NCBI GenBank assembly: GCA_028718635.1
Contig: JAQULK010000001.1
Location: 543,834 to 607,833 of the forward strand
Direction of reading: 5' to 3'
Source of the DNA: Minisyncoccota bacterium
GTDB taxonomy: Bacteria; Patescibacteriota; Minisyncoccia; Phycocordibacterales; UBA9973
Length of the DNA: 64,000 bases
The notes beneath the pieces are model-generated. The model searched no databases and was not told where the DNA came from. It saw nothing but the letters and a program-made list of their open reading frames with translations. The translations under genes were made by a program, and so were the position numbers. Shown piece by piece: positions 17,223-63,649 of this stretch (within the stretch, counting starts at the first letter, position 1; every line of letters starts with the position of its first letter).

Positions 17223-18974
17223 CTAGTATATTTCTTGCTGATAACACCTCTCACAATAAATAATTTCAGGACGTTCCGGAGCATAACTGGTCTCAAACTC
17301 TACAGGGCATTTACCTATATGGGTATGGGTAGTCTTTTCACACATGCAGGCTCTATGCCAAAGCTTTAAGGGATTCCTTTGTTTCAGTCTTTGGTAATGT
17401 CTGCAATTAGGACAGAGATGAGGTAAAGGTAGATTCATTCTTTGGTAGAATTGGAGTTCTGGAGCAATGATTTTGAAGGCTTCGGTGCATTGTTCATTGC
17501 ATTTGCCTTGATGTTCGCATTCTATGACTTTCCCTAGGATGGATTCATCTACGTCTTGGATGTTGTCCGGAATGTCTGTTGTTTTAATGTCTAGGGTATA
17601 GTTTCTTTCTTCTGCATCTTTCCATTGGTAACCTTGTTTTAAAGCTTCTTCTTTGGTTAAAGGAAAGTATTCTTGAGCGATGGTTTCGTTGTAACAGAAA
17701 GGGCTTAATTCTGTTGGAAAGAACTCTCCGTATTGGTAGATTCTGCCTTTGGTGTCTAGGTAGGGCATATCGTTCATGTGCTTGATGATTTTGGGGACTA
17801 GTTCTTCGTATTGTTCTTTGGTGTATTGGTGGTTGAGGATGCAGTAGGATTTGTTGCGGAGACCGACGCAGGCGAAGAGGTGGATAGATCCTGAACAATT
17901 TATAGAATAAGAAATATCACTACTGTCCTTTATAAAAAAACTAAATTTATAATCGGAATTTTCATTTGATTCAAAACCTAATGCAATAGTCTCATAGACT
18001 GATTCTGCTTTTGACATTCCATAATTGTCATAGCTATCTTTTACGCCAAGGACTGAATGTGTGGTGTATTTACTATTTTCAGAATCATTTCCCAATACAT
18101 CAAAACAATATTTACAATTTCTTGCATTCCTAATATTATTCCCTGTGCATTCTTTTGTATTAATTAAAAGAGAATGTCTGTGTATAGAATTAAGATATAA
18201 ATCTTTAAATTTATCTTTGTTTTTTTGCAAAGAATCATAACTACCTAAATTTAAATTCTGAATAGTTGCCAAATATTCTTCCCTCTTCATTTGTTTATTA
18301 AAAAAACAATATTGTTTATTCTTTAAATTAGTACATCCAAAACAGTTAGTGCAATTTTTACATTCGTATAAAAAATATGAATCAACGCAATTATCAGAAT
18401 TTTTACTAAAGAATAATCTGTTTGAATTCTCGCATTGAATATCCTCATAACAAAGTTCAAGTTTTTTAGAAATAGAAATGTCTAAGGAATCTTTCATGAA
18501 GGATGAGTTGCTGGAATATAAAACATTTTCATCGTTTTTACTTCCAAATAAGAGGTAACAATTTTTATTTTCAGCAGAAAAATTACAATAATCTGAATTT
18601 ACTGGATTAGTATTAAATAAACTCATTTGTGGAACTTTATTATATAAATCCTTTAGCTGAACGAAAAAATTTTTAGAAAAATCATAATCGCTTCCAAAAG
18701 AAAAAGGATCCCAAGAATCTCCCCACCAGCAATCCTGACAGAATACATTTATGGGACTTTCTTCTGCATAAATAGAAATAATAGTTTTTTTACAAAGATT
18801 GCATTTCCTTTTATACAAAGACCTTTCATTGCGAAAGTTCATCCTTTTGACCATCCGACATTCCGGACACCATGTAGGTGGAGGCACTTTTATTTTTTTA
18901 TAGAAATTAAAATCTTCCGGCTCGATTATGAAGTCTTTTTGACAATTTTGGCATACTTTAGTTTCCGAATCCAT
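17223..18974 (-). CDS. Cysteine-rich paralog family protein, copy 1 (583 aa), inserted between ftsW and murG
   Basis: Family signature: N-terminal CQNCKKDFxIEPEDFxFYxKIKVPPPTxCPECR, C-terminal LPLPxLCPNCRHYQRLKxRNPxKLWHRxCMCxK...CxVEFETSYAPxRPEIIYCExCYQQE(I/V)Y, and internal C-x2-C-x2-C-x2-C modules. Confidence 0.85.
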   Translation of the reverse strand: MDSETKVCQNCQKDFIIEPEDFNFYKKIKVPPPTWCPECRMVKRMNFRNERSLYKRKCNLCKKTIISIYAEESPINVFCQDCWWGDSWDPFSFGSDYDFSKNFFVQLKDLYNKVPQMSLFNTNPVNSDYCNFSAENKNCYLLFGSKNDENVLYSSNSSFMKDSLDISISKKLELCYEDIQCENSNRLFFSKNSDNCVDSYFLYECKNCTNCFGCTNLKNKQYCFFNKQMKREEYLATIQNLNLGSYDSLQKNKDKFKDLYLNSIHRHSLLINTKECTGNNIRNARNCKYCFDVLGNDSENSKYTTHSVLGVKDSYDNYGMSKAESVYETIALGFESNENSDYKFSFFIKDSSDISYSINCSGSIHLFACVGLRNKSYCILNHQYTKEQYEELVPKIIKHMNDMPYLDTKGRIYQYGEFFPTELSPFCYNETIAQEYFPLTKEEALKQGYQWKDAEERNYTLDIKTTDIPDNIQDVDESILGKVIECEHQGKCNEQCTEAFKIIAPELQFYQRMNLPLPHLCPNCRHYQRLKQRNPLKLWHRACMCEKTTHTHIGKCPVEFETSYAPERPEIIYCERCYQQEIY

Positions 18975-19000
18975 GGACTTAAAATTAATTATTTTTATGT

Positions 19001-20101
19001 TTAATTTTTGCGCTGAAATTTTGATATATTAAGCACTATGCCTATAGCCATCATATAAACCATAAGTGAAGTGCCTCCTTGGCTCATAAACACTAATGGA
19101 ACTCCTGTTAAGGGAAAAACCCCAACCACAGAAGCAATATGCATAAATGATTGCGCTGTAATTAGTATAACAATTCCATAAACTAAAAGTCCACTAAAAG
19201 CATCTGGGGAGCGATTGGCAATACGAAAACCCCGTAAAATAAAAAATAAATAAAGAATTATCGTAAAGACTGATCCGACAAAACCTAATTCTTCGCCCAA
19301 AACAGCAAAAATAGAATCCCCTTGCGGCTCAGGAAGATAACTGAATTTTTGAATGCTTTGACCGAATCCACGCCCTATAATACCGCCAGACCCTAAGGCG
19401 ATGAGAGATTGCTGGATTTGATAGGAAGATCCTTGCGCATCCTGCGATGGATTTATAAAAGTTTTTACCCGTTCCTGCAGATAAGGCGTAAAATATACAA
19501 GGGTTCCGAGTAGCAGTGTCGCCCCTAAAATCGTGCCTATAATATATTTAACAGGAACGCTTGAAATAAAAAGCATCGACACTCCGGTAACAGTAATCAA
19601 GATAAAGCTTTTTGTATCCGGCTGTTTTAATAGAACCACAGCAATGACTGCGAGCATCACTAAGAATGGCAAAATTCCAAATTTAAAATCCTTGACTCTG
19701 CTTTTCGCCCACGACAGCCAAGCGGCAAAATAAATCACAAAAGCAAATTTTAAAAATTCAACAGGTTGGAATTTTAGCAGGCCTAGGTCGATCCATCTTT
19801 CTGCCCCTCCATGACTCCACCCAAGTGCAGGAATAAAAACCGACGCAGTCAATAATATTGATCCCAGAAAAATTATTAAGGAAAATCTGCGCCAAAATTT
19901 ATAATTAATCTTAGAACAAAAGTACATGCCCAGAAAACCAATACCAAGACCTAAAACTAGTTGGCTAAAAAGCACTGAATAAAAAGTTTTTTCATTTCTT
20001 GCTAAAACTCCGAGCGATGCTGAAATAAACATAGCCACTCCCAGCGCTAATAAAATAAATGTAATTATAAGAAAAAATTTATCGGCCTTTTTTTCTTTCA
20101 T
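19001..20101 (-). CDS. ftsW: SEDS-family peptidoglycan glycosyltransferase FtsW/RodA
   Basis: 366 aa polytopic membrane protein with SEDS conserved regions (GxxxNGAxRW-like GGAERWIDLG, PEPQGDSIFAVLGEELG). Confidence 0.8.
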   Translation of the reverse strand: MKEKKADKFFLIITFILLALGVAMFISASLGVLARNEKTFYSVLFSQLVLGLGIGFLGMYFCSKINYKFWRRFSLIIFLGSILLTASVFIPALGWSHGGAERWIDLGLLKFQPVEFLKFAFVIYFAAWLSWAKSRVKDFKFGILPFLVMLAVIAVVLLKQPDTKSFILITVTGVSMLFISSVPVKYIIGTILGATLLLGTLVYFTPYLQERVKTFINPSQDAQGSSYQIQQSLIALGSGGIIGRGFGQSIQKFSYLPEPQGDSIFAVLGEELGFVGSVFTIILYLFFILRGFRIANRSPDAFSGLLVYGIVILITAQSFMHIASVVGVFPLTGVPLVFMSQGGTSLMVYMMAIGIVLNISKFQRKN

Positions 20102-20220: not shown

Positions 20221-20224
20221 TTCT

Positions 20225-22941: not shown

Positions 22942-24705
22942 TTAATAAACTTCCTGTTGATAGCACTTCTCACAATAAATTATTTCTGGTCTATCTGGTG
23001 CATAACTCGTCTCAAATTCTACTTCGCATTTTCCTGCTCCATGAAAATGATTTTGTTTATCACACATGCAGACTCTGTGCCAAAGTTTCATTGGATTTTT
23101 TTGTTTCATTCTTTGATAGTGCCTACAGTTCGGACACAACCTAGGTAAAGGCAAATTCATTCTTTTGTAAAATTGCAAATCTTCAGGAAGAATTCTGAAG
23201 GCGGTCATACAATCCTCCTCGCACCCTCCTTCATGCTCACAGCCTATCACTTCTTCTAAAATTGAGTCCTCGACTTGTAGAATACTGTCCGGAAGTTCGT
23301 TCGATTTTTTTGTAATTTTATAATCTCTTTTTTCACGATCTTTCCAATTATAACCACTTGCTAGAGCTTTTTCTTTATTCAGAGGAAAATATTCTTGCGC
23401 AGTAGTTTCATTATAGCCATATGGTGAAAATTCTACAGGAAAAAATTCACCGTATTTATATACTCTTTCTTTTTTATCCATATAAGGCATATCATTCATA
23501 TGTTTGATTATTTTAGGAACCAGTTCTTCGTATTCTTCTTTTGTGTATTGCTTGTTTAAGATGCAATATTCCTTCTTTTTTAAACCAACGCAAGCAAAAT
23601 TATTTTCTCCTCCGACAACCCTGATGCTATAATCTATATTTCTCGAACTACTCCAAACTCCCCAACTATGCTTAATATTATATGTACCATTTCCACACTG
23701 AAGACATTCATATACAAGCTCAATATTATCTCCATAATGAGTAAAATCATAAGTAGTTCGTACTGGTCCATTTGAAACAAAAGAGCAAAATTTTGAATCT
23801 TCTGTATTTATGACGCAAAAACATTCTTTGGCATTTTTGGAATGTACTATATAGTCACCAGTCACATTTGAATTTTGAACACCAAAATAATATTTTTTAG
23901 GAAATTTTTTCCAAAACTTCTTAGCTTTTTCTTTCAATGCACTTATATTTTTATAAGAATCCAATCCGAAAGATTTTAATTTTTCTTCGTATTCTTCTTT
24001 GGTGTATGGGGCATTCCAAATGTGATAACTTTTTTTATGGAGATTTACACAACCAAAACAATTATTGCATCCGCGAAGACTATAAGAAAAATATACTTCC
24101 ACGCAATCTTCACAATTTTGAGAGAAAAAAGTCCGATAACAATTTACACTAGTTACTGTTTCATAACTAAGTTCTACTCTATCTACCATAGTAATGTCCT
24201 GCGAATCTTTTGAGTGGAAAACTCCGCTTCCGTAAGATATGTCTTCGTCAAAGGTTCCATCATGAAGCAAGTAACAATTTTTCATATCATTTGCCATATT
24301 GCAATACTGAGAATTAATCATAGTCATACTTATTGCGAAAAGATTACCAATGGGAACTTTAAGAAAAAGTTCAAAAATTTGATCAAAAAATGGTCTGGAA
24401 AAATCAATATCCATTGCATAATCAGAAGCATTCCAATCATCTCCCCACCAGCATTTATCGCAATATATAGTATCTTTTTTATAATCTTTGCTATAAATAG
24501 AAATTATTTTCTTTTTACACAAACCGCATTCTCTATAATGAAGACTCTTTTCATTGCGCCATGCTAAACGTCTTTGTAATCTACACTCTGGACAAAAAGT
24601 CGGCACCGGCACTTTTATTTTTTCATAAAATCCAAAATCATTCGGTTCTATTGCAAAGTCTTTTTTGCAATTTTGGCATATTTTGTTTTCTTTTTTATGT
24701 TCCAT
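22942..24705 (-). CDS. Cysteine-rich paralog family protein, copy 2 (587 aa)
   Basis: Same N- and C-terminal family signature; tandem with copies 3 and 4. Confidence 0.85.
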   Translation of the reverse strand: MEHKKENKICQNCKKDFAIEPNDFGFYEKIKVPVPTFCPECRLQRRLAWRNEKSLHYRECGLCKKKIISIYSKDYKKDTIYCDKCWWGDDWNASDYAMDIDFSRPFFDQIFELFLKVPIGNLFAISMTMINSQYCNMANDMKNCYLLHDGTFDEDISYGSGVFHSKDSQDITMVDRVELSYETVTSVNCYRTFFSQNCEDCVEVYFSYSLRGCNNCFGCVNLHKKSYHIWNAPYTKEEYEEKLKSFGLDSYKNISALKEKAKKFWKKFPKKYYFGVQNSNVTGDYIVHSKNAKECFCVINTEDSKFCSFVSNGPVRTTYDFTHYGDNIELVYECLQCGNGTYNIKHSWGVWSSSRNIDYSIRVVGGENNFACVGLKKKEYCILNKQYTKEEYEELVPKIIKHMNDMPYMDKKERVYKYGEFFPVEFSPYGYNETTAQEYFPLNKEKALASGYNWKDREKRDYKITKKSNELPDSILQVEDSILEEVIGCEHEGGCEEDCMTAFRILPEDLQFYKRMNLPLPRLCPNCRHYQRMKQKNPMKLWHRVCMCDKQNHFHGAGKCEVEFETSYAPDRPEIIYCEKCYQQEVY

Positions 24706-24735: not shown

Positions 24736-26439
24736 TTAATACACTTCCTGTTGATAACATTTCTCGCAGTAAATAATCGGAGCGTAAGATTCATCATATA
24801 CTGTTTCAGCTTCTATATTGCATTTTGAACAAAAACGTTTTATTAATCTAAAAGGCGAACGTTTTGCTAAACGTCGCATATGCCTGATATAAAAACTCGC
24901 GTGTGGAAGAGGTAAATCCATTTTTCTATAAAATGAAAGTTCGTTCTCTGTTATTTTATATGCCCCTACAGATTTCGAATTATTTTTTTCTTCGCATTCT
25001 ATAATTTCCTTTAAAATTGAATCATCGGTTTCGCTAATGGTTTCAGGCAACTCTGAACTTTTAATCGTTGTTTTATAATTTTTTTCTTCTCTGTCCTTCC
25101 ATTTATACCCTTTTGCTAAAACCTCTTCTTTTGACAAAGGAAAGAAGTCTGCCGCTGCTGTCTCATTAAAAGCAAAATCAGAAAAAGAGTTTGGAAAATG
25201 TTCGCCAAATCGATACTCTAAACCTTGATCAAAATAAGGCATTTCTTTCATTTGTTTTATGATTTTTTCTTTCAGCACTTCATATTCCTCTTTATTATAC
25301 TTTTTATTCAAAATTGAGTACTCTCCTTTTTTTAAACCGACACATCCAAAACAATTCCGTGCCCCTGGACAGGAATTGCAATAATATAAATCCGAGGCTC
25401 CCATCCAACACTGAGTGCAAAAGTAAATTCTAGCGATATCTAGACCGCAGTTTTCTGATTCATATACTAGTTCAGCCTTATTCCCCCATTCAAAAAAATC
25501 CATGCAGTCTTCCAAGCCGAAAACCGAAAAAAGATACTTTCCATCTTTTACATTTACACAATCAAAAGATTGATGTACGTTTTTGCAGTTCGTAAACCAA
25601 TTGCCAGAAACATCACTAGATTTTATAGAAGCAACCGCTTTTTGAGGGAATTTTTTTCTAAATTCTTCAAATTTTCTATCCATTTCCTTAATGCCAGAAT
25701 AAGTGTTCAATTTAAGACCCTTTATCTTTTTAAAATATTCTTCTTTAGAATAAGCTTCGTTAAAAATATAAAATTCCTTATTATTCAAATTAACGCAACC
25801 TACACAATCAGAACAATTTCGGCAAGCATACAAAAACGAAGAATCCCTGCAATCATGGCTCTCCATACTAAACCTAAGGTTATAACAATTTCTGCAATTT
25901 ATACATTCATAACAAAGCTCGCTTTTGTCAGTCCAAGCGCAGTCGGAACAATCTCTTATGTTCTCGGCAATATAGCTATAAAAAGAATTTTCTGCATTGG
26001 TGGCTCTGAAAACCATATAGGAATTCCTTGGACTGGTAACACGATGAGTGTAAGGGCTATTGATCGCAAAACCCTGCCTGACAAGACTCATTCTCGGAAC
26101 CTTGTTTTGTAATTCCAAAAATTGTTCAAAGAATGGACGATTTTCGTCGTAATCCATTCCATATGAAGACGGATCCCATTTATCTGAATACCAAATATCT
26201 ATATCATAAACTGGAAATATCGTTTTCTCGGGATACATACTAAAAATTTCTTTGTTCGTAAAATCACATTTGCGCTTATAAAGAATAAGCTCATTGGTGC
26301 TCATTAGGCGTCTCATTAGCCTACACTGCGGGCAAAAAGTCGGTGGTGGTACTTTTATCTTTTCATAAAACCCAAAATCATCCGGCTCAATTACGAAATC
26401 TTTTTTACAATTTTGGCAAGTTTTAATTTCTTCTTTCAT
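24736..26439 (-). CDS. Cysteine-rich paralog family protein, copy 3 (567 aa, divergent C-terminus)
   Basis: N-terminal signature conserved (CQNCKKDFVIEPDDFGFYEKIKVPPPTFCPQCR); the C-terminus keeps ...SYAPIIYCEKCYQQEVY but lacks part of the CPNCRHYQR ribbon. Confidence 0.8.
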   Translation of the reverse strand: MKEEIKTCQNCKKDFVIEPDDFGFYEKIKVPPPTFCPQCRLMRRLMSTNELILYKRKCDFTNKEIFSMYPEKTIFPVYDIDIWYSDKWDPSSYGMDYDENRPFFEQFLELQNKVPRMSLVRQGFAINSPYTHRVTSPRNSYMVFRATNAENSFYSYIAENIRDCSDCAWTDKSELCYECINCRNCYNLRFSMESHDCRDSSFLYACRNCSDCVGCVNLNNKEFYIFNEAYSKEEYFKKIKGLKLNTYSGIKEMDRKFEEFRKKFPQKAVASIKSSDVSGNWFTNCKNVHQSFDCVNVKDGKYLFSVFGLEDCMDFFEWGNKAELVYESENCGLDIARIYFCTQCWMGASDLYYCNSCPGARNCFGCVGLKKGEYSILNKKYNKEEYEVLKEKIIKQMKEMPYFDQGLEYRFGEHFPNSFSDFAFNETAAADFFPLSKEEVLAKGYKWKDREEKNYKTTIKSSELPETISETDDSILKEIIECEEKNNSKSVGAYKITENELSFYRKMDLPLPHASFYIRHMRRLAKRSPFRLIKRFCSKCNIEAETVYDESYAPIIYCEKCYQQEVY

Positions 26440-26486
26440 TTTTTTTATATTATCACTTTATAACGGCCGTTAAATTTTGATAATGC

Positions 26487-33312: not shown

Positions 33313-33394
33313 CCCGTACGAAATTATATTAACTTTGTAAATTGACCCATCCACAACACGAAATTTTATTAAAAAGATTTCGTACGGGATGCAT
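33309..33394. repeat. Type-A junction inverted-repeat element (arms ATGCATCCCGTACGAAAT / ATTTCGTACGGGATGCAT, 18-bp perfect)
   Basis: The right arm encodes the last 8 codons of ribE (YASRTKSF). The left arm contains the ribH ATG. Confidence 0.75.
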
Positions 33395-49106: not shown

Positions 49107-50225
49107 TTATATCCCCTCTTTTTTAAGTTCTTCTATTGTTGCACGAGCTTGACGAGAGAGTTTGGTTGGAAGTTTTATGTTGAGTTTAATTAATAGATCC
49201 CCTCTTTTATTTTTTGCAAAAGGCACACCCTTGCCACGAACGCGCAGGATCTCATTTACAGAAACTCCTTCCGGAATCGTCACTTCGATTTCTCCATCCA
49301 AAGTTTGAATAGGATATTTAGTTCCGAGGAGCGCATCGGAGAGTTTTAAATTCAAATTCATCACTAGGTCATTTCCCTCTCGCTTGAATATAGGATGCGG
49401 AGCCACATTTATTTTTATATAAAGATCCCCCGTAGTGCCTTTAGAAACTGCCTCTCCGTAGCCTGTCATGCGAATCATCTCGCCATCGCGAATGCCGGCT
49501 GGAATGACAATGGAAACTTCTTCCTCGCGACGAAGTACTCCTTTGCCTTTACATTTTTCACAAACTTCTTTCGGCACTTCGCCTGTACCCAGACAGACTT
49601 CGCAAGTTTTCGTACTGGCGATATTTCCAAAAATTGTTCTTTTTGATTCGCGAATGCGTCCCTGTCCATTGCAATTTTTACAGGTTTCCATTTTAGTTCC
49701 AGGTTTCGCGCCGGAACCTTTACAAGTCTCGCAGGTGGAAGTTTTGGTAATTAAAACTTTTCTGGTTACGCCAAAGATAGAATCAGCGAAAGAAATTTGA
49801 ATCTCCGTAGAGATATCTCTGCCTCGACGCGCTTCTTGTCTTCCTCCGCCCATTCCGCCTCCGAAGAAATCACTGAAAATATCATTGAGGTCAAACTCGG
49901 CAGAACCGTTTTGAAAACCGCCAAAGCCCTGCCCAGAAAAATTACTGAAATCAAAACCACCGAAGCCACCTTGCCTTGGGTCGCCGTAGCCTCCGGCAGA
50001 GGCACCTCCCATATTTTCAAAACCTGATCCGAATTGATCATACTTTGAACGCTTGGCGTCGTCGGAAAGCACTTGATAAGCTTCGTTGGCTTGCTTAAAT
50101 TTTGCTTCATTACCGCCCTTTTTATCAGGGTGATATTTCTGCGCCAACTTATAAAAAGCCTTCTTGATTTCATCTTTAGAGGCAGTTTTATTCACACCTA
50201 AAATGTCATAATAGTCTTTATTCAT
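49107..50225 (-). CDS. dnaJ: Chaperone DnaJ
   Basis: J-domain (DYYDILGV...HPDK), G/F-rich linker and four CxxCxGxG zinc-finger repeats; 372 aa. Confidence 0.9.
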
Positions 50226-55854: not shown

Positions 55855-57759
55855 TTACGCCTTAGGCTCTTCGCCTTCAGGACCTTTTTCTTTAAACTCA
55901 GCGTCTTTGACTTCGGCTGGTTGTTCTTCGGGAGTTCCAGCTGGAGGAGTTTCGGTCCCTGCCTTTGCCATTGCTTCTCCTATCTTAGACATTTCAGCAG
56001 AAAGTTCTTCAGTGGCTTTTTTGATCGCCTCTCCATCGGTGCCATCTTTCACCCCTCGCAACGCAGTTATCTTTGCATTCACTTCATCTTTTAATTCTGC
56101 AGGAATTTTTGCTTCATTGTCTTTGAGCGCTTTTTCTGCAGTGTAAATTATCATCTCTGCAGTGTTTTTCACTTCTGCATTTTCTTTCTTTTTCTTATCC
56201 TCTTCAGCATGAAGCTCTGCATCAGCTTGCATTTTCTTGATGTCTTCTTCCTTGAGCCCGGAACTGGCTTCGATTTTAATTGATTGAGTTTTTCCAGATG
56301 CTTTATCTTTTGCAGAAACGTTTAGGATTCCATTTACATCCACATCAAAAGCAACTTCAATCTGGGGCATGCCACGAGGAGCTGGTGGAACTCCATCTAA
56401 AATAAATCGGCCTAGAGATTTGTTGTCAGATGCCATCGGGCGTTCTCCTTGCACAATATGTATTTCTACAGAAGTTTGATTGTCAGCAGCAGTAGAAAAT
56501 GTTTGGGACTTACTCGAAGGAATAGTGGTATTTCTTTCAATTAATTTTGTAGCCACTCCTCCTAAAGTCTCAATCCCTAAGGATAGAGGAATCACATCCA
56601 GAAGCAACACATCACGAACATCCCCTTGCAACACGCCTGCTTGGACGGCTGCACCGAGCGCCACGACTTCATCAGGGTTAATAGACATATTTGGAACTTT
56701 GCCGAAAAGATTTTGTACTGCAGAAACTATGGCTGGCATTCTCGTCTGACCGCCCACCATGATAATTTCATTAATTTCATTCATCTTAAATGGAGAAGCG
56801 GAAAGAGCTCTTTTAGTAATTTCAATGGATCGATCTATGTATTCCTTAGCAAGAGATTCCAACATCGCACGAGACATCTTGAGCAATAAATGCTTTGGAC
56901 CAGAAGCATCAGAAGTAATAAAAGGAATATTTATTTCAGTTTCCGTAGTGGTAGAAAGTTCATGCTTAGCTTTTTCGGCAGCTTCTTTTAGTCTTTGGTG
57001 CGCCAGAGGATCTTTGATCACATCAATACCAGATTCTTTTTTATATTCTTCAGCTATCCACCCTATTATTTTTCTATCAATATCCCCTCCGCCCATATGG
57101 CTGTCTCCATCGGTGGATTTAACTTCAATAACGTCATCGCCTATTTCTAATACAGACACATCAAAAGTTCCTCCGCCGAAATCGTAAACAACTATCTTTT
57201 CATTTTTCTTTTTATTAAATCCATAAGCAAGCGCTGCAGCCGTTGGTTCGTTGATGATACGCTTTACATCGAGCCCAGCGATAGCTCCTGCATCTTTGGT
57301 CGCTTTTCTTTGGGCATCATTAAAATATGCTGGAACTGTTATTATAGCCTCAGTAATTTTTTCTCCTAACTTTGCTTCAACGTCGGCTTTTATTTTTTGT
57401 AGAATAATCGCGGAAATTTCTTCTGGTCGATAAAACTTATCTGCCATTTTTATTTTTACTCCGCCTCCATCTCCCGCTTCAATTTTAAATGAAGCTGTTT
57501 CGCGATCCTTTTGCACTTCTGGATCATCAAATCGATGTCCCATATAGCGTTTTATTTCAGCAATGGTGTTTTCTGGATTTGTAACCGCTTGTCTTTTTGC
57601 TAAAAGGCCGACGATGCGATCTCCATTTTTTGCAGTCGCTACGACAGAGGGTGTCGTACGATTGCCTTCTACATTCTCTATAATCTTCGGTGCACCGCCT
57701 TCAATGACAGCTACTGCCGAATTTGTTGTTCCTAAATCTATACCTATTATTTTTGACAT
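55855..57759 (-). CDS. dnaK: Chaperone DnaK (Hsp70)
   Basis: [35 protein letters not shown] Hsp70 signatures; 634 aa. Confidence 0.95.
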
Positions 57760-57857: not shown

Positions 57858-58406
57858 ATGTCAAGTTATTCAAGAAAAATACTTAAAAAACTAGCCGAAA
57901 GACCGGCAATTTCCGTGGAAGATTTAAAAGACCTGCCTGCCATGCCTACCGGCAGGCAGGCCGGCGAGGCAGGAAATGATACTAAAACAACCTATGCTAT
58001 TTCTCGCGCCTTAAAAAATTTAGTGGAAGGCAAATATGCAGAAATTCATGAATCCGGAAGGCAAGATTACGTAAAAATTACTCCTCTTGGAAAAAATAAA
58101 TTAAACACGTTGCTCTTGGAAAATGAGAGTGTGCTGGTCCCACAAAATTGGGATGGATTTTGGAGAATTATTTTGCTTGATCTTCCTGAAAGTAGAAAAA
58201 GTGAGCGCGAATCTTTACGCTACCTTTTAAAAAAAGCTGGCTTTGTCTGTCTAAAAAATTCTGCTTGGATTTCTCCCTTCCCTTTTGAACATTTGTTTGC
58301 GAACATAAAAAAAGATCTCGGGCTCACCACCGAGATAATGATCATCGTCACTGAAAATATAGACAACGAAAGTAAAAAAGTTTTATTTGAAAGTTTTGGA
58401 AAGTAG
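57858..58406 (+). CDS. PaaX-like winged-helix regulator family protein (182 aa), opposite strand within the chaperone/Cys-rich cluster
   Basis: C-terminal WDGFWRIILLDLPESRKSERESLRYLLKKAGFVCLKNSAWISP matches the PaaX-type C-terminal domain. The N-terminus carries an in-frame GC palindrome insertion (LPAMPTGRQAGEAGN). Confidence 0.45.
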   Translation: MSSYSRKILKKLAERPAISVEDLKDLPAMPTGRQAGEAGNDTKTTYAISRALKNLVEGKYAEIHESGRQDYVKITPLGKNKLNTLLLENESVLVPQNWDGFWRIILLDLPESRKSERESLRYLLKKAGFVCLKNSAWISPFPFEHLFANIKKDLGLTTEIMIIVTENIDNESKKVLFESFGK

Positions 58407-58456: not shown

Positions 58457-60184
58457 CTAGTATATCTCCTGCTGGTAGCATTTCTCGCAATAAACTATTT
58501 CCGGACGGTCGGGCGCATAACTGGTCTCAAATTCAACTTCGCATTTGCCTTTATGATTTGAATGATTTTCTTTATCGCACATGCACTGTCTTTTAAAAAA
58601 AATAGGTGGATTTCGCAACTTTAAACGTTCATAATGTCTGCAATTAATACATAAACGAGGCAATGGAAGGTTCATTCTTTTTAAGAAATCAAATTCTGTT
58701 TTAATTATGCGAAAAGCCTTCGTACATTCATGTTGACAATTTCCTTTATGAGCACATTCAATAGATTGATTCAAGATGTTCTCATCAATTTCTTTTATGT
58801 TATCTGGAATATCTTCATTTATTAATGTAATTTTATAATTTTGCTTTGAAGTTTCATACCACAAAAACCCTTTACTTTTCGCTTTTTCTTCACTTAAAGG
58901 AAAAAATTCATATGCTTGAGTAGCGTTGTACGGAAAAAAGGAAAATTTACTCGGAAAAAATTCTCCGTATTCACTTGTTTCTTTCATGTGTTTAATTATT
59001 AGAGGCACTATTTTTTCATATTCTTCTTTGGTGTATTGCTTGTTGAAGATGCAATATTGTTTATTTTTTAACGAAACACACCCAAAAAGATCTGACGAAC
59101 TACTACAGAAAACACAGTAAGTCAAATTCCTTACATTCGGATAACAGTAAGCACTGAATTTAATATTCGAACTTCCATCACCAACAATAAGACTTTCATA
59201 AATAAGCTCTGCATTTTCTCCATAATTAGAATAATCGTAACAATCTTTCACTGGACCACTTAAAATATTTTGAACGAATTTACTATCTTCCACCGTCCTA
59301 ACACGAAAACAATATTTTGCGTTTTTAGACCCATAGACATAATCACCGGAAACATTCATATTTTGACGGTCATGGATATATTTTTGAGGATAATTAAGCC
59401 AATGCTTATAAGCTTTGTCGCGTAAGATTTCAAAAGCTTTGTTGGAGCCCAAGTTAAATTCTGCAACTTTTTTTAAATATTCTTCTCTTGAATATTGTTT
59501 ATTAAAAATACAATATGATTTATTGCGAAGATTAATTGACCCTAAACAACTATTGCATCCAATACAATCTTTACAGAAAATCATTTCTTGGCAACTTTCA
59601 CAATCAACTGAAAAAAATGTTTTGTAACAAGTTGTTGTATTAACATTTCCATAACTTAATTCACATTTAGTTGTCATGTGACTGTCAAAGGATTGTTTAG
59701 AACCCGTGTCCCAAATAAGATAAGCGGAATCTTCCGTATAAGACGCTCCTCGAACGAGATAGCAATTTTTGCAGCTATGATTATTTGAACAATAATAACA
59801 ATTCACCATATTGTACATAGAATGTACAGGTAGTGGTACTTTATAAAGCAAATCTTTAAACTGTTCAAAAAATGGTTTTGAAAAATTATACTCTTGACCA
59901 TATTCCAAAGGATTCCAAGCATCAGAAATCCAATAATCCCGATCATATATTTTATAAGTGTTTTCTTCAGGGAAAAGTGAGAAAATTTCTTCCCCATTTA
60001 GAGCTTCCTTTTTCTTGAATAAATGCCAATCATTACGCCAAGCCATACGTCTTTGCAACCTGCATTCTGGACAAAAAGTAGGCGGTGGAACCTTTATCTT
60101 TTCATAAAAGTTAAAATCTCCCGACTCTATCGTGAAATCTTTTTGGCAATTTTGGCATATTTTGTTTTCACTGTTACTTTCCAT
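58457..60184 (-). CDS. Cysteine-rich paralog family protein, copy 7 (575 aa)
   Basis: Family signature (CQNCQKDFTIESGDFNFYEKIKVPPPTFCPECR ... CEVEFETSYAPDRPEIVYCEKCYQQEIY). Confidence 0.85.
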   Translation of the reverse strand: MESNSENKICQNCQKDFTIESGDFNFYEKIKVPPPTFCPECRLQRRMAWRNDWHLFKKKEALNGEEIFSLFPEENTYKIYDRDYWISDAWNPLEYGQEYNFSKPFFEQFKDLLYKVPLPVHSMYNMVNCYYCSNNHSCKNCYLVRGASYTEDSAYLIWDTGSKQSFDSHMTTKCELSYGNVNTTTCYKTFFSVDCESCQEMIFCKDCIGCNSCLGSINLRNKSYCIFNKQYSREEYLKKVAEFNLGSNKAFEILRDKAYKHWLNYPQKYIHDRQNMNVSGDYVYGSKNAKYCFRVRTVEDSKFVQNILSGPVKDCYDYSNYGENAELIYESLIVGDGSSNIKFSAYCYPNVRNLTYCVFCSSSSDLFGCVSLKNKQYCIFNKQYTKEEYEKIVPLIIKHMKETSEYGEFFPSKFSFFPYNATQAYEFFPLSEEKAKSKGFLWYETSKQNYKITLINEDIPDNIKEIDENILNQSIECAHKGNCQHECTKAFRIIKTEFDFLKRMNLPLPRLCINCRHYERLKLRNPPIFFKRQCMCDKENHSNHKGKCEVEFETSYAPDRPEIVYCEKCYQQEIY

Positions 60185-60230
60185 TTTTGAAATTTCTTAG
60201 TCTATCATATATGATATGCTAATTAAATAT

Positions 60231-61973
60231 TTAATATATCTCCTGTTGATAACACCGTTCACAGTATACAGTCTCTGGTCGGTCCGGAGCATAGTTCGTT
60301 TCAAATTCTATCTCGCATTTGCCTTTGTGATTTGAATGGTTTTCTTTGTCGCACATACATTCACGTTTATAAAGTCTTGGTAAGGGTAATTGTATAAATC
60401 TTTTGTAATGACGACAATTAGAACAAAGAACAGGAAGCGGTATATTGTGTTTCTTATAAAATTTTAGCTCATAATCCGTCAAACGAAAAGCTACATTACA
60501 ATGATGGTCACACCTCCCTGCATGAGCACATCCTAAAACTTCTTTCAAAATTTCATCATTTACTTCGACTATATTGTCTGGAATTTTTTCTGTTGGTATA
60601 CTAATTTTAAAATTTTTAACAATAGATTCGCGCCAAGTATAACCTTTTTTTGCTGCTTCCTCCTCTGTGATAGGAAAAAATTCCTGAGCTATAGTTTCGT
60701 TGTATCCCCAAGGAGAAAGTTCTACTGGAAAAAATTCACCATATCTATAAATCCTTCCCACCTTATCCACAAAAGGCACATTTTCCATTTGTTTTATGAT
60801 CTCCTCTCGAAGTTTATTAAATTCTTCTTTTGAATAAACCCTGTTTAAAATTGCATTTTCTTTGTTTTTTAGACCGGTACAACCAAATATATCATTGCAA
60901 TTGGCACAAAAATCAACATAATCCGCATCTCGCACAGAGTTATTGGCAGAATGGGAAAACTTTACATTGTAATCGTCTAAGGAACCTGTCACATACTCAT
61001 ACATCATCTCTGACCATCCGCTATAAGTAAAATCCATACAATCTTTTGCAACCAGAGTTCTATAGCCATATTTTACATTTTCCACATCCTCTGAATTAAA
61101 ACAATTTTTACAATTTTTCACATTGGAAAGATTATTTCCTGTAGAATTTACTGAACGAATGATGTTAGCAAAACGATAAATAGCTCTTTGCTTTATCTCT
61201 TCGAATTCCTTGATTAAGATTTCACGCGAAGCCCTGCTTTGTAAATTTAATTTCTTTATCTCTTTTAAATATTCTTCTTTTGAATATTGTTTGTTGCGAA
61301 TATAAAATTCTTTATTGCGCAAATTATAAGAAAGTAAGCAGTTACTACAATTTACACAATCAACCAAAAAATAAGAATCCAAACAATTTCTAGACAATAA
61401 AACGTGCTGGCAATTATAGTTTTTTTCTCCTTCAATATTCTCATATAAACTTTGTCCTTCCTTCATATTTGCGCAATCAATAATATCGCTGGACTTGTCT
61501 ACTGTTGTTGAATAAAAAACATTTTCTGACCCTTTAACGACAGAAACAGATAAGTAAACATTTCTTGATTCCCCAACATAGTTCGAATAATCAGAATTAA
61601 TAGAATTTCTCTGCCAAAGAGCTAACCTTGGTACAGTTTCAAGCAATTCTTTAAATTGTTCAAAAAAAGATCTAGAAAAATCATAACCCCGTCCAAAAGT
61701 AGTAGCTTCCCACGCGTCTCCATGCCAACATTCCCTACAGTAGACAGGAAAGGACACAAATTCAGCATACATTGAAATAATATTTTTTTTACACAGACTG
61801 CAGTCACGACGATACAATACCCTCTCATTACGCCAAGCAAGACGCCTAATAAATCTGCATTCCGGACAAAAAGTAGGAGGCGGTACTTTTATTTTTTCAT
61901 AAAAATTAAAATCTTCTGCCTCTATGATGAAGTCTTTCTTACAGTTTTGACAAATTTTAATTTCTTGTTTCAT
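60231..61973 (-). CDS. Cysteine-rich paralog family protein, copy 8 (~580 aa)
   Basis: Family signature. The start is trimmed to the internal MKQEIKICQNCKK Met (61973), 2 nt after the upstream copy's stop. Confidence 0.8.
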   Translation of the reverse strand: MKQEIKICQNCKKDFIIEAEDFNFYEKIKVPPPTFCPECRFIRRLAWRNERVLYRRDCSLCKKNIISMYAEFVSFPVYCRECWHGDAWEATTFGRGYDFSRSFFEQFKELLETVPRLALWQRNSINSDYSNYVGESRNVYLSVSVVKGSENVFYSTTVDKSSDIIDCANMKEGQSLYENIEGEKNYNCQHVLLSRNCLDSYFLVDCVNCSNCLLSYNLRNKEFYIRNKQYSKEEYLKEIKKLNLQSRASREILIKEFEEIKQRAIYRFANIIRSVNSTGNNLSNVKNCKNCFNSEDVENVKYGYRTLVAKDCMDFTYSGWSEMMYEYVTGSLDDYNVKFSHSANNSVRDADYVDFCANCNDIFGCTGLKNKENAILNRVYSKEEFNKLREEIIKQMENVPFVDKVGRIYRYGEFFPVELSPWGYNETIAQEFFPITEEEAAKKGYTWRESIVKNFKISIPTEKIPDNIVEVNDEILKEVLGCAHAGRCDHHCNVAFRLTDYELKFYKKHNIPLPVLCSNCRHYKRFIQLPLPRLYKRECMCDKENHSNHKGKCEIEFETNYAPDRPETVYCERCYQQEIY

Positions 61974-61975
61974 TT

Positions 61976-63649
61976 TTAAGCAATATTCTGCTTGTAACAT
62001 TCTTCGCAAGCGATTTTCTGATATCCCCACTCTGGCAAATAATACGCTTCAACTTCTTTTTCGCAATAAAAACACTTATACGGATATGCTTGCAAAACGG
62101 TCAAGTATTTCAAACTATTTTTTATACGCACGTCAAAATGACGACGCGGAAGCGGAATATTGTTCTCTCTATAAAAAGAGAGTTCGTTTTGGGCAATATT
62201 AAAACGCCAGCCTGTCTCCGGGCATATGAGCGCTTGAGTAATAATGGTATCTGGTACATCTTTTATGTCATCAGGCAATTCGCTTGTAGGCATTCCATCT
62301 ATATGATTCTCTATGATATCTTCCCAATAACCTCCAAGTTTTAAAATATCTTCTTTTTTTGTATCTGGAAAATATAAAAAGCTTGTTGAAAAATTGAAAG
62401 GTCCTGCGCTCATAGCGTAAGGTAAAAACTTTCCATATTCTCCCCTCTTTTTCATATCAGAAACTATTTCATCTTTTAGTTTTTCATACTCTTCCTTGTC
62501 ATACTGTTTATTTAAAATGCAATATTTTTTCTTCTTGAGTCCAACACAACCAAAACAATATTCACATTCAAAACAAATGTCTAAATATTCAGAATACCTG
62601 GAAGGAGACCAACTCGAATATTTGAGAGAATAACTATTTCCTTGACAGGCGCTGCAATTACCAGACAATTCCAAAAACTGACAACCATTAGAATCAATAC
62701 TTGATTTTAATTCTTGCCCTCTGATACAATTTGATAAATCTTCAGAAGTTTGTATCGTATTACAATTGTGACAATTTTTTACATCTAATAAATAATTTCC
62801 ATCTGAATTATGTGTTTTTAGATTAAAATTTGGCCTGTGAACTACCTCTTTTATAATTATTTCCTCAAAACGTCTTTTATATTTTTGGATAGAACCATAG
62901 GAACCTAAATTAAATGATTTTATTTTTTTTTCATATTCCTCTTTAGAATACTGAACATTTTCTATGCAATGAGATTTGTTGCGTAAATTCCAACACATAA
63001 AACAGTTTTGGCAATTTCGACAATCGTATAAAAATCTAGAGTCTATGCAATCACGAGAATGTTTGGAATAAAAAAGTTTATAAGAGTTAAAGCAATCTGA
63101 GGAATCATAACTTTTTTCGCAAAAAAAACCAACAATCATATCAAAAGAATTCTTTACTCCTATATTTCTATATGAATAATACAAATCTTCACAATCCACC
63201 ATCGAACGAGATAAATAACAATTTTTTGAATTCCAAACATCATCGCACCAATCACAACCAGTATTCTTTATACCTCCTTGGTGTGGGTGAGGAATTTTTT
63301 CTTGAAGTTCTTGTAATTGCTCAAAAAAAGGCTTACTAGAATTATAATCCATTCCATAATCCATCGCGTCCCATTTGTCGCTGTACCATTCGTTTAAAGT
63401 ATAGATCGGGTATCTGCTTTTTTCCGGCAAAACAGTGATCAAGCTCTCTCCTGAAAGGTCTGATTTGCCTTTGCGGAATTTTCCAAACATCCAAAAAGAT
63501 AAATGTAATTTTACTCGACAGAAAAAACAAAGCGTTGGCAGTTCAATATCAACTTTTTTATATAAAGATAATTCCTCTTCTGTAATTGTGAAGTCTTGCT
63601 GGCAGTGTTCACAAATTTTATGTTGCTGATTCTTTGTATTCATATACAT
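61976..63649 (-). CDS. Cysteine-rich paralog family protein, copy 9 (557 aa, most divergent member)
   Basis: Recognisable but diverged termini (ICEHCQQDFTITEEELSLYKKVDIELPTLCFFCR ... CFYCEKEV...IACEECYKQNIA) and the same C-x2-C module architecture. Its start overlaps the grpE 3' end. Confidence 0.75.
   Translation of the reverse strand: MYMNTKNQQHKICEHCQQDFTITEEELSLYKKVDIELPTLCFFCRVKLHLSFWMFGKFRKGKSDLSGESLITVLPEKSRYPIYTLNEWYSDKWDAMDYGMDYNSSKPFFEQLQELQEKIPHPHQGGIKNTGCDWCDDVWNSKNCYLSRSMVDCEDLYYSYRNIGVKNSFDMIVGFFCEKSYDSSDCFNSYKLFYSKHSRDCIDSRFLYDCRNCQNCFMCWNLRNKSHCIENVQYSKEEYEKKIKSFNLGSYGSIQKYKRRFEEIIIKEVVHRPNFNLKTHNSDGNYLLDVKNCHNCNTIQTSEDLSNCIRGQELKSSIDSNGCQFLELSGNCSACQGNSYSLKYSSWSPSRYSEYLDICFECEYCFGCVGLKKKKYCILNKQYDKEEYEKLKDEIVSDMKKRGEYGKFLPYAMSAGPFNFSTSFLYFPDTKKEDILKLGGYWEDIIENHIDGMPTSELPDDIKDVPDTIITQALICPETGWRFNIAQNELSFYRENNIPLPRRHFDVRIKNSLKYLTVLQAYPYKCFYCEKEVEAYYLPEWGYQKIACEECYKQNIA

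Follow-up and report, generated by a model that had tools for sequence, protein, structure and literature searches.

What do nine related, cysteine-rich proteins do in a Minisyncoccota bacterium, and why do several of their genes lie within heat-shock chaperone operons? The question is raised by a 64,000-nucleotide stretch of DNA (the window), in which an earlier note had listed nine paralogous reading frames on the minus strand and put their share of the sequence at about 25%.

Nine paralogues and their architecture

Inspection of open reading frames and translations placed nine genes, designated m1 to m9, on the minus strand as had been listed, with only the start codons of m6 and m8 needing refinement. 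Together they take up 24% of the window (about 15.6 kb), and they encode proteins of 557 to 587 aa with 30 to 37 cysteines each (5.2-6.4%). A hidden Markov model (HMM) built from the nine recovered exactly nine members among the reading frames of the window of at least 150 aa, taken from stop to stop, and the proteins form a collinear alignment of 601 columns in which indels are few. No match to the family was found in Pfam or NCBIfam (above threshold), nor in PADLOC or PDB. The nine genes are one family of real paralogues with a shared architecture, as had been proposed, and the family is in no curated library, which agrees with the earlier failure to recognise any characterised domain.

m1 (17223-18974; 583 aa; 962 bits against the family HMM) is flanked by ftsW (19001-20101) and murG (16018-17148), both identified with Pfam, at distances of 26 and 74 nt respectively. 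m4 (26487-28238; 583 aa) lies 23 nt downstream of scpB, in a run scpA-scpB-m4-m3-m2 that continues with m3 (24736-26439; 567 aa) and closes with m2 (22942-24705; 587 aa); the m2 product is 100% identical to P0063, the NCBI entry [quoted passage not shown]. m5 (47357-49105; 582 aa) begins 1 nt past the dnaJ stop codon. m6 (51850-53574; 574 aa) sits between two genes for VirD4-like ATPases; its ORF opens at a TTG at 53586 and the Met common to the family is at 53574. m7 (58457-60184; 575 aa) and m8 (60231-61973; 580 aa) are followed on the map by m9 (61976-63649; 557 aa), the start of which overlaps the 3′ end of grpE. The mechanical ORF of m8 extends to a GTG at 62030, the family N-terminus being given by the ATG at 61973. 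The limits of m2, m4, m7 and m8 rest on ORF and family HMM, those of m3 on these and the alignment.

The last 620 nt or so of m1 (17223-17845, minus strand) are nearly identical to the corresponding end of m5 (47357-47975) and include a perfect 486-nt run ending near the stop codon (repeat family D8). This gene-conversion tract falls in the conserved 3′ end, outside the core. Beyond it, the first 1,140 nt of the two genes are 45-73% identical and the downstream flanks are unrelated. Misassembly, which the earlier note had raised as a possible source of the copies, is excluded because, the tract excepted, the copies are only about 60-75% identical in DNA, and because both tract junctions are backed by gene order: ftsW-m1-murG is the order expected of a cell-wall cluster, and the order dnaJ-family gene-u192, here dnaJ-m5-u192, recurs in other genomes (L003, L010, L020, L026 and L063).

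The proteins are soluble and mildly acidic (whole-protein pI 5.8-6.8). Export signals are absent, with no hydrophobic N-terminus or transmembrane segment in any family protein (maximum KD19 at most 1.4); thus, the statement that none has a signal peptide stands. m4 served as reference for the domain map and for an AF2 model (pLDDT 85, pTM 0.87; only 65-75 pLDDT in the solenoid parts), the structure prediction of one member having been among the checks first proposed. The map, all on the minus strand, begins with a putative double zinc ribbon (residues 1-95; 27954-28238) carrying invariant and near-invariant cysteines: ribbon A (C8,C11...C36,C39) has an embedded helix, and ribbon B reads C58,C61-x17-C79,C82. 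The first half of a predicted beta-solenoid (residues 121-262; 27453-27878) consists of coils of about 12 residues, several with CxxC pairs, and terminates in a cap, FGCxNLxKKxYCIFN..KEEY, and a helical hairpin. The second half (residues 263-405; 27024-27452), recognised by hhalign, the model and a motif scan, carries the cap motif a second time, along with a helix. A conserved middle domain (YGEFFPxExSPFxYNETxAQEFFPL...; residues 406-484; 26787-27023) is followed by a C-terminal double ribbon (residues 485-583; 26490-26786; hhalign and conservation) with extra Cys and His (C485,H487,C491,C495; C520,C523; C542,C544...C556; C574,C577).

The core had been described as a hypervariable array of variable numbers of modules of about 30-35 aa. 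This description does not hold: the alignment is collinear, and the motif on which it was based occurs exactly twice in each of the nine members, near residues 213 and 366. The core is instead a single, fixed duplication of a beta-solenoid module of about 145 aa (residues 115-262 against 263-405, hhalign E = 1.8e-27), with one FGCxxLxxKxYCIxN...KEEY motif closing each half. That the C-terminal ribbon duplicates the N-terminal one, as had been noticed, was corroborated for ribbon A (hhalign E = 2.4e-18) and for the second ribbon (8.6e-8). Solenoid and ribbon pair were each born of an internal duplication. Ribbon B cysteines are absent in five of the nine paralogues and those of the C-terminal ribbon A′ in two, m3 lacking both sets in the alignment. 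The CxxC pairs are most reasonably read as sites of intracellular zinc binding, since the ribbon B spacing equals that of a CxxC-x17-CxxC domain of Methanosarcina small proteins shown by ICP-MS to bind zinc (PMC12704099); the metal binding suggested at the outset is to that extent supported.

Divergence and distribution of the family

The paralogues are old, being only 32-66% identical to one another. Between them the core is about 35% identical as against about 50% for the N- and C-terminal regions, so that the picture of conserved ends and a variable core stands for paralogues. It fails for orthologues, in which the core is 61-90% identical and equals or exceeds the termini in most pairs. 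Several paralogues have orthologues at 69-81% in other genomes: m3 (69%, L008), m4 (80%), m6 (73%, at the same position in L043), m8 (70%, syntenic in L062) and m9 (77-81%, directly after grpE). m9 is the most divergent paralogue and typifies a distinct conserved subfamily, clearly so in 11 of the 12 best-matching homologues. Among 41 positions conserved in orthologues yet variable among paralogues, 33 fall in the solenoid core; in the termini such positions make up 0-5% of columns. The termini are common to all paralogues, with solenoids that differ among paralogues and stay constant within orthologues. This pattern indicates probable paralogue-specific binding surfaces and not a contingency family.

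Searches returned more than 7,000 homologue hits, unnamed or "hypothetical" save for one generic JGI label. The family amounts to no fewer than 5,144 clusters at 50% identity, 2,279 of them reaching 1e-30, and has at least 510 genomic relatives. Organism-named homologues are almost all from Patescibacteria of the Parcubacteria/Paceibacteria group, and labelled records are mainly Parcubacteria-group MAGs; a pattern scan confirmed no relatives in a viral contig collection. By these matches, the family is very large, lineage-wide in Patescibacteria (Parcubacteria group), the CPR bacteria with tiny genomes, and never described. The survey of relatives that had been proposed revealed tandem arrays of up to 12 copies, together with the syntenic orthologues of m6, m8 and m9. 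Nine copies in one window are highly unusual, as first claimed, against bacteria in general, but not within this lineage, where arrays of 7-12 copies are common. Many single copies lie amid unrelated housekeeping genes; family genes are also found in tight operon spacing or overlap with uvrC and with ileS/recO.

Chaperone operons and orphan ATPases

In the window, family genes are spaced as in operons, or overlap, with grpE, dnaJ, scpB and ftsW, and five of them are interleaved with chaperone genes in the order grpE-m9-m8-m7 ... dnaK-ATPase1-m6-ATPase2-dnaJ-m5, all on the minus strand. The 3′ part of grpE (63618-64000), cut by the end of the window, has its stop at 63618 and overlaps the m9 start by 32 nt; its translation matches GrpE cluster c13. 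Downstream of dnaK (55855-57759; Pfam HSP70, 802 bits) lies a strong terminator-like hairpin (55852-55824). ATPase1 (53648-55792) encodes a soluble VirD4/TraD-like P-loop ATPase of 714 aa with a CxxC-x17-CxxC zinc finger towards its C-terminus and a tail of low complexity; it matches TrwB_AAD_bind, DUF87, TraG-D_C and zf_Tbcl_2 (6.9e-10) in Pfam, and TIGR04272 above cut-off. ATPase2 (50241-51755; 504 aa), VirD4/TraD-like by Pfam and NCBIfam, lies directly upstream of dnaJ and has orthologues 88-93% identical across loci. dnaJ itself (49107-50225; Pfam DnaJ, DnaJ_C and DnaJ_CXXCXGXG) lies directly upstream of m5.

The ATPase cluster, to which ATPase1 belongs, is the commonest neighbour of the family (36 of 78 loci, a biased background, since the loci were picked for having the family). 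In family-containing loci, 27 of 98 arrays have it as their direct upstream neighbour and 19 of 96 as their direct downstream neighbour; 48 of 118 arrays (about 40%) have no ATPase on either side. The pairing recurs in varied surroundings: dnaK-ATPase-family gene, membrane protein c9-ATPase-family gene, and family array-ATPase-dnaJ. Membrane protein c9 and the ATPases match adjacent portions of one phage profile, phrog_5156. On an independent JGI contig, a DUF87 ATPase is followed by a small CTP-transferase-like gene, eight genes for proteins of about 560-585 aa lacking a Pfam match, and an 845-aa T4CP-like protein with zf_Tbcl_2; on the related contig L079, seven of eight such array genes were verified with the family HMM. 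In RAAC4_OD1 (L054) dnaK directly adjoins dnaJ, and no family gene intervenes. The association with dnaK, dnaJ and grpE may be partly inherited gene order within one order-level clade, and the strongest context link of the family is to the orphan VirD4/TraD-like ATPases. Patescibacteria are rich in such proteins: 5,713 VirD4-like homologues have been counted in 2,918 genomes, only 148 of them near virB4, and their exaptation to another function has been left open (PMC12102498).

Possible functions and comparison with known systems

We tentatively favour, at a probability of about 0.4, a role as cytoplasmic, zinc-stabilised adaptors or scaffolds that work with the co-encoded ATPases. The conserved ribbon pairs and middle domain of each protein would dock on a common partner, most likely the hexameric VirD4-like ATPases, given that a CxxC-x17-CxxC finger of this type is also present in ATPase1, and the solenoid face peculiar to each paralogue would bind a client of its own. 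Together, the paralogues would in this way aim one ATP-driven machine, possibly cooperating with DnaK, DnaJ and GrpE, at several targets, and clients might be unfolded, translocated or remodelled at the ATPase. The location within chaperone operons beside orphan secretion-type ATPases offers a testable lead on the function of both.

[quoted passage not shown] VirD4-family proteins are T4SS substrate receptors, and the system is widespread in Patescibacteria (PMC12102498); the route needs no signal peptide, which the family proteins lack, and tandem arrays are common. The nearest structural matches for the solenoids are mostly extracellular (curli CsgA, insect antifreeze proteins, autotransporter heads). 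In some lineages c9 precedes the ATPase, and the two jointly resemble a single, fused phage protein. We nonetheless consider this unlikely. Beyond the scarcity of coupling-protein homologues near virB4 (148 of 5,713), the only strain amenable to genetics did not require the coupling protein for epibiotic growth (PMC12102498). The ATPases of the window lack a transmembrane segment, and no c9 homologue was found in the window. Moreover, the solenoids are among the parts best conserved between orthologues, the opposite of what an arms race at a host interface would produce; at least eight structural zinc-type cysteine clusters at both termini suit a folded cytoplasmic protein, and family genes are placed in core housekeeping operons.

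Nucleic-acid binding is common among zinc ribbons, and the proteins could be such binders, for example regulators or chaperones of RNA or DNA. Contact with nucleic acid would be made by all four ribbons and by the Arg-rich helix that follows ribbon A (CPxCRxxRRLAxRNE, with R40, R43, R44 and R48 conserved), and the solenoids would supply paralogue-specific recognition or protein partners. DNA-related genes occur among the neighbours (uvrC, recO, scpAB), VirD4/FtsK-type ATPases translocate DNA, and the JGI label mentioned above reads "Zn ribbon nucleic-acid-binding protein". This label is, however, an automatic annotation, the proteins are acidic, the ribbon regions have little net positive charge (-4 to +7), and no DNA- or RNA-binding family in Pfam or NCBIfam matches; these features make the proposal improbable.

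By analogy with bactofilins, the homologous ribbon pairs flanking the beta-solenoid core at both ends might join head to tail, and different paralogues might thereby build different cytoskeletal or scaffold polymers for division, segregation or cell shape. The copies within the ftsW-murG cluster and directly after scpA-scpB would fit, as would the considerable portion of the genome, some 0.67 Mb in size, that the family takes up. Yet these two placements were seen in no other sampled genome, and Pfam gave no sequence match to bactofilin or another polymer family, so that we rate this idea as quite improbable.

It is very improbable that the stacked CxxC pairs and the C-x2-C-x2-C-x2-C run (residues 207-216) bind Fe-S for electron transfer or redox sensing. 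The run is dense and conserved (C210, C213 and C216 in at least 90% of sequences) and CxxC pairs recur about every 12 residues in m4 solenoid half 1. But the spacing is unlike known 4Fe-4S or radical-SAM motifs, with no Fer4 or radical-SAM match in Pfam; the half-2 counterpart of the run is mostly devoid of cysteines and m7 and m8 miss some in half 1, therefore a cluster would not be essential to the fold; and the metal bound by the related CxxC-x17-CxxC domain is zinc and not Fe-S (PMC12704099).

Lastly, the likeness to diversifying or contingency families with a fast-varying middle, serving for instance immune or phage evasion or defence, finds some echo in the many paralogues with conserved ends and divergent middles, in the recent m1/m5 conversion and in the HerA/VirD4-like ATPases of some defence systems (those here match PADLOC mad8 and HerA weakly), but is largely refuted by middles that equal or surpass the ends in conservation in most orthologue pairs, old paralogues, a fixed module number, genes devoid of simple-sequence repeats, a conversion tract that spares the core, no reverse transcriptase or recombinase among the part of the window ORFs scanned against Pfam, and a family with neither PADLOC match nor viral-contig relatives.

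Several known systems resemble the family in part. The solenoid regions of m9 (E = 1.5e-7) and m3 (3.6e-6) match the phage family phrog_15341 partially, the other paralogues scanned (m1 and m4) giving no match; some phage proteins therefore carry related solenoid repeats with cysteines. Evenly spaced cysteines within coils are reminiscent of insect antifreeze proteins. Short-coil, Cys-rich beta-solenoids such as curli CsgA-like repeats (8c50), spruce budworm antifreeze protein (1m8n) and left-handed beta-helix acyltransferases show no sequence kinship to the family (6-11% identity, no Pfam match), in a region where model confidence is only 65-75; curli and antifreeze proteins have export signals, whereas the family protein is presumably cytoplasmic and has zinc ribbons on both flanks.

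With PF23477 (zf_Tbcl_2)/TIGR04272, of which ATPase1 bears a true member, ribbon B of m1, m2, m4 and m8 shares the exact C58-x2-C61-x17-C79-x2-C82 spacing, and the duplicated ribbon B′ closes in the same ...Y-C-E-K-C-Y knuckle. Matches stay below threshold (12.6-14.8 bits against cut-offs of 27 and 36; residues 51-83 in m4), these cysteines are gone in the five paralogues noted above, and the domain spans about 35 of some 580 residues, being uninformative on the remainder.

Type IV coupling proteins (VirD4/TraD/TraG) recognise sets of client proteins, a logic to which a set of paralogues sharing their ends and differing in their middles would be suited, and the commonest neighbours of the family are VirD4/TraD-like P-loop ATPases with an all-alpha-domain match. 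These ATPases nevertheless score far under every curated coupling-protein threshold (e.g., 47-54 bits against 366), lack the N-terminal membrane domain and are not beside virB4, and no known coupling-protein adaptor or substrate resembles the family.

ClpX, which bears a zinc-binding domain at its N-terminus and works with adaptors such as SspB, and J-domain proteins as Hsp70 specificity factors are functional analogies only. The family has neither a J domain nor a ClpX-type finger match in Pfam, and homology is absent, but the logic would be alike: a common docking element joined to a variable client-binding one, a zinc module on the ATPase, and linkage to grpE, dnaK and dnaJ.

Architecture of the nine proteins

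The nine genes of the cysteine-rich family (m1 to m9) were verified by ORF calls and translation at 17223-18974, 22942-24705, 24736-26439, 26487-28238, 47357-49105, 51850-53586, 58457-60184, 60231-61973 and 61976-63649, all on the minus strand, as the earlier note had placed them. The family methionine of m6 lies at 53574, the TTG at 53586 not being the family start, and m8 begins with the ATG at 61973 rather than with a GTG further upstream. The proteins are 557-587 amino acids long, contain 30-37 cysteines each and jointly account for about 24% of the window. They are soluble, mildly acidic and, as had been claimed, devoid of a signal peptide. A profile built from the nine sequences retrieved exactly m1 to m9 among the window's reading frames of 150 aa or longer. 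The m2 protein has an exact counterpart (100% identity) in NCBI, a "hypothetical protein" from a Candidatus Pacebacteria MAG. The window itself is ordinary chromosomal DNA of a Patescibacteria genome, low in GC (about 36%), and carries topA, relA/spoT, mraY-ftsW-murG, scpAB, several aminoacyl-tRNA synthetase genes, dnaB, recR, riboflavin genes and one tRNA. An origin of the copies from misassembled repeats was ruled out, DNA identity between copies being only 60-75% and the junctions syntenic.

Few indels interrupt the alignment of the nine proteins, which is collinear over its 601 columns. Mean pairwise identity reaches 49% in the N-terminal 100 columns and 54% in the C-terminal 220, versus 35% in the middle, which bears out the conserved ends described in the earlier note. 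The core was said to consist of variable numbers of 30-35-aa modules; this description does not hold, the motif FGCxxLxxKxYCIxNxxYxKE being present exactly twice in each member, near residues 213 and 366. The core is in fact a single internal duplication (residues 115-262 versus 263-405; E = 1.8e-27 in a profile-profile comparison). In m4, our reference for domain mapping and modelling, the first half of this predicted beta-solenoid is made up of coils of about 12 residues with CxxC pairs at 183/186, 195/198, 207/210 and 213/216, as read from the sequence; most of these cysteines are gone from the second half. The C-terminal ribbon is a duplicate of the N-terminal one, as suspected (ribbon A, residues 11-49, versus 495-533; E = 2.4e-18), and the duplication reaches further, with the second ribbon (53-82) aligning to 537-577 (E = 8.6e-8). 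Since both ribbons match C-terminal counterparts, the entire N-terminal double ribbon is repeated at the C-terminus. The architecture is fixed and built from duplicated modules, the two internal duplications being new points.

An AlphaFold2 model of m4, obtained from a 95-sequence alignment, has an overall pLDDT of 85 and a pTM of 0.87; pLDDT exceeds 90 in the ribbons and in residues 340-583 and lies at 65-75 in most of the solenoid. The predicted fold is unusual: short CxxC-bearing solenoid coils are combined with a double ribbon present in duplicate and with a C-terminal domain that lacks a structural neighbour.

Conservation among paralogues and orthologues

Pairwise identity among m1 to m9 ranges from 32 to 66%. 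Closer orthologues are found in other genomes (81% for m9, 80% for m4, 73% for m6, 70% for m8 and 69% for m3), often in the same gene order; m9 represents a clearly separate subfamily. Conservation between orthologues provides the decisive test of the hypervariability that had been attributed to the middle region, and it speaks against it: the solenoids are 61-90% identical in orthologue pairs, at or above the level of the termini in most of them, and in m4 orthologues they reach 88-90% versus 76-81% for the ends. Forty-one positions are at least 90% conserved in 25 m4-type orthologues yet variable among the nine paralogues. The two solenoids hold 33 of these 41 (16% and 13% of their columns, as opposed to 0-5% in the termini) and have the smallest share of columns varying within orthologues. 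Therefore, the ends represent the common part, and the solenoids are surfaces particular to each paralogue and kept by purifying selection.

A single trace of recent exchange was detected, between m1 and m5, which lie 30 kb apart. Their 3' portions of about 620 nt (17223-17845 and 47357-47975), covering the conserved 3' end, are nearly identical and include a 486-nt perfect run ending near the stop codon. Outside this tract, identity is only 45-73% over the 5' 1,140 nt, and the sequences downstream of the two genes bear no relation to each other. As both tract junctions are supported by gene order, the tract results from recent gene conversion and not from misassembly.

Distribution and gene neighbourhoods

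A word-indexed search returned more than 7,000 matches, all of them unnamed or "hypothetical" except for one generic JGI label, and an exhaustive search yielded 5,144 clusters (50% identity) at E <= 1e-3 and 2,279 at E <= 1e-30. Named homologues come from Nomura-, Giovannoni-, Staskawicz-, Portnoy-, Pacebacteria and similar organisms; genomic relatives number at least 510, and those with a label are for the most part MAGs of the Parcubacteria group. The family is thus very large, its named homologues belonging almost entirely to one lineage. A scan of a viral contig collection confirmed no relative. Tandem arrays occur in other genomes: a single-cell assembly from Patescibacteria has twelve copies that fill 21.7 kb (L039, 1-21771), nine were found in L007 and L072, eight in L047, and one MAG has at least 15 copies over three loci. 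The array of locus L079 (1-13432) comprises seven HMM-confirmed copies and ends at a T4CP-like ATPase with a zf_Tbcl_2 finger; a longer JGI contig of the same organism shows eight consecutive genes for proteins of about 560-585 aa, seven confirmed by the family HMM via L079. Since multi-copy arrays are the rule in the lineage, nine copies are typical, and the copy density, which had been considered highly unusual, is not so where up to 12 copies stand in tandem.

Five of the nine copies are interleaved with genes of the Hsp70 system, in the order grpE, m9, m8, m7, a divergent PaaX-like gene, dnaK, ATPase1, m6, ATPase2, dnaJ, m5 and a membrane protein gene, where ATPase1 and ATPase2 are VirD4/TraD-like ATPases. 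The 3' end of grpE and the start of m9 share 32 nt, dnaJ and m5 are separated by a single nucleotide, and a strong terminator-like hairpin lies 3' of dnaK. The order is repeated in several related genomes, with family copy number varying at the three positions, and the linkage between Hsp70 and the family may in part be inherited synteny. Other copies are placed tightly in housekeeping operons of unrelated function, for example ftsW-m1-murG and scpB-m4-m3-m2 here and, elsewhere, a family gene between uvrC and spoU or between ileS and recO, a placement typical of core genes.

The PaaX-like gene (57858-58406, plus strand) encodes a small protein combining a winged helix with a Cas2-like PaaX_M domain, and its position divergent from dnaK is kept in 12 loci; it may regulate the heat-shock cluster in place of HrcA. 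The membrane protein (46731-47309, minus strand; 192 aa, multi-pass, no family match) is encoded directly 3' of dnaJ, or of dnaJ followed by a family gene, in 12 loci. Two intergenic sites, the m4/m3 gap (26449-26484) and the gap between m5 and the downstream membrane protein gene (47288-47347), share a conserved stretch of about 30-60 nt with the palindrome TTAACGGCCGT(T/C)A at its centre, which may represent a common operator or an RNA element.

When the neighbours of family genes were clustered in 78 loci, themselves chosen through the family, the commonest was a soluble VirD4/TraD/HerA-like P-loop ATPase (36 loci, 55 genes). This ATPase lies directly upstream of 27 of 98 arrays and directly downstream of 19 of 96. 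An ATPase neighbour is missing from about 40% of the arrays. Contexts include dnaK-ATPase-family gene, c9-ATPase-family gene (as in Staskawiczbacteria and Kaiserbacteria MAGs), c9 being a cluster of membrane-protein neighbours, and one or more family genes followed by the ATPase and dnaJ. On the JGI metagenome contig mentioned above, which is independent, a DUF87 ATPase gene is followed by a small CTP-transferase-like gene, then by the eight family-sized genes and last by a gene for a T4CP-like protein of 845 aa that bears zf_Tbcl_2. The c9 protein and the ATPase domain match adjoining parts of the phage profile phrog_5156, suggesting a split membrane-anchored protein in some lineages.

The window contains two types of this ATPase, both encoded on the minus strand. 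ATPase1 (53648-55792) carries a true CxxC-x17-CxxC finger (38.9 and 40.8 bits, above cut-offs) and a low-complexity, Pro/Gln-rich repetitive tail. ATPase2 (50241-51755) is 88-93% identical across genomes whose family orthologues share only 50-80%. Both differ from bona fide T4CPs, falling far under the cut-offs of all curated TraD/VirD4 models and lacking the N-terminal membrane domain, with the P-loop beginning near residues 30-60 and no TM segment. A wider homology between the ATPase C-terminus and the family, outside the zinc finger of about 30 aa, was considered and rejected (hmmsearch E > 0.02). In 2,918 Patescibacteria genomes, a 2025 survey counted 5,713 VirD4-like homologues, of which only 148 lie near virB4; it left the role of the orphan ATPases unresolved and their exaptation to another function open (PMC12102498).

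Several other features of the window were recorded. A GC-rich palindromic motif, CCTGCCTGCCGG(CAGGCAGG), is present in 8 copies versus 0.13 expected at 36% GC, with sites at 17183-17216, 41562-41585, 57949-57960, 53769-53780 and 31045-31056; among them are a perfect palindrome of 34 bp in the m1/murG gap and a copy within the low-complexity tail of ATPase1, and the motif looks like a REP-like repeated element. A perfect inverted repeat of 22+22 nt (5308-5354; AATTCGGACGTTGGACGTCCGG, 3 nt, reverse complement) lies within the topoisomerase I ORF (4138-6417). Two intergenic copies of an 81-nt direct repeat (12460-12540 and 43803-43883), 84% identical and 31 kb apart, each lie 3' of a plus-strand gene. 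Genes for GTP cyclohydrolase II, lumazine synthase, a lumazine-binding/riboflavin synthase-like protein and also a Fic-domain protein are found at 32264-33950 and 36857-37921, on the minus strand; riboflavin biosynthesis genes stand out in a Patescibacteria genome that is minimal in other respects.

Proposed function and relation to known families

From architecture, conservation and gene linkage, we tentatively propose, with a probability of roughly 40%, that the family members are cytoplasmic adaptors or scaffolds, probably stabilised by zinc. Shared ends combined with a middle that differs between paralogues and is conserved between orthologues predict a common docking partner and paralogue-specific clients. 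The ends would dock on the shared partner, most plausibly the linked VirD4-like ATPases, perhaps with participation of the Hsp70 system, and the solenoids of different paralogues would bind different clients. A wider and doubtful extension would make the family part of a protein-handling machine that has gone unrecognised and is spread throughout the lineage of Parcubacteria-group Patescibacteria. The two TM-less VirD4-like ATPases and, in some members of the lineage, the Hsp70 system would also belong to it, and a panel of zinc-ribbon/beta-solenoid adaptors would present different clients, via paralogue-specific solenoid faces, to an exapted type-IV-coupling-protein motor. If true, this would assign a function to some 5,700 orphan T4CP homologues of Patescibacteria and explain why at least 2% of minimal genomes is devoted to one unannotated family.

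Alternatively, the family proteins might themselves be substrates exported by the coupling-protein-like ATPases. This we consider unlikely, for the solenoids are conserved between orthologues, the genes sit in a housekeeping context and no link to virB4 is apparent. No virB4 gene was found among window ORFs scanned against Pfam. Nucleic-acid binding is less probable still, being disfavoured by protein charge. By analogy, the proteins could assemble into bactofilin-like polymers, a prospect to which we give slightly less weight; known beta-solenoids (bactofilin PF04519, hexapeptide LbH PF00132, curlin repeat, insect antifreeze) gave no profile match in four members at Pfam E <= 1 and no PDB sequence match. 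An Fe-S or redox role appears very improbable: the family motif is C-x2-C-x2-C-x2-C, not the CxxCxxCxxxC or CxxxCxxC of Fe-S proteins, and no member tested matched the Fer4 or Radical_SAM Pfam profiles. The diversifying or contingency reading of the earlier note has almost nothing left to recommend it, given the orthologue-conserved middle and the lack of any detected variation mechanism (no simple-sequence tracts or tandem repeats within the nine genes; no reverse transcriptase or recombinase among window ORFs scanned against Pfam).

Patescibacteria (CPR) account for much of bacterial diversity; their genomes measure about 0.6-1 Mb, and their cell biology is largely uncharted. A family of at least 5,000 clusters, which can reach a dozen copies per genome or more and sits inside core operons for chaperones, cell wall, chromosome segregation and DNA repair, constitutes a substantial blind spot, and its linkage to the ATPases joins two unknowns into one testable pair. 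Besides the two internal duplications, the solenoid specificity pattern, the lineage-wide scale and the link to orphan coupling-protein-like ATPases and chaperone operons are new.

The family is undescribed, with no curated model, structure or paper found. In keeping with the earlier note, in which no characterised domain had been recognised, Pfam, NCBIfam and PADLOC gave nothing above threshold; at E <= 1, Pfam and NCBIfam returned noise (Med15_N, CHIPS) plus a sub-threshold zinc finger. No description was found in the open-access literature, including a census of CPR protein families (PMC6744442). PADLOC defence models matched none of four members at E <= 0.1, and the window ATPases gave only weak mad8 and HerA matches. 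A profile search of PDB sequences produced one chance match (E = 0.5), and a Foldseek search of the PDB with the m4 model nothing at E < 1. Matches to PHROGs were limited to families of unknown function, one of which, phrog_15341, resembles part of the m9 and m3 solenoid. The DnaJ-type finger (PF00684, CXXCXGXG) is found in the neighbouring dnaJ and in no family member tested. A resemblance to the Hep1/DNL-type Hsp70 escort finger was considered and dropped, no match to Pfam zf-DNL being obtained. The sole meaningful library signal comes from ribbon B, which matches the CxxC-x17-CxxC finger (PF23477 zf_Tbcl_2 / TIGR04272) below threshold. For m4 the match scores 14.8 versus 27 bits (Pfam) and 12.6 versus 36 bits (NCBIfam), failing both cut-offs, and the other members tested gave zero matches. 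The cysteines are absent from m3, m5, m6, m7 and m9; m1, m2, m4 and m8 reproduce the finger's spacing exactly (C58, C61, C79, C82), and in small proteins of Methanosarcina mazei this domain binds zinc, as determined by ICP-MS (PMC12704099).
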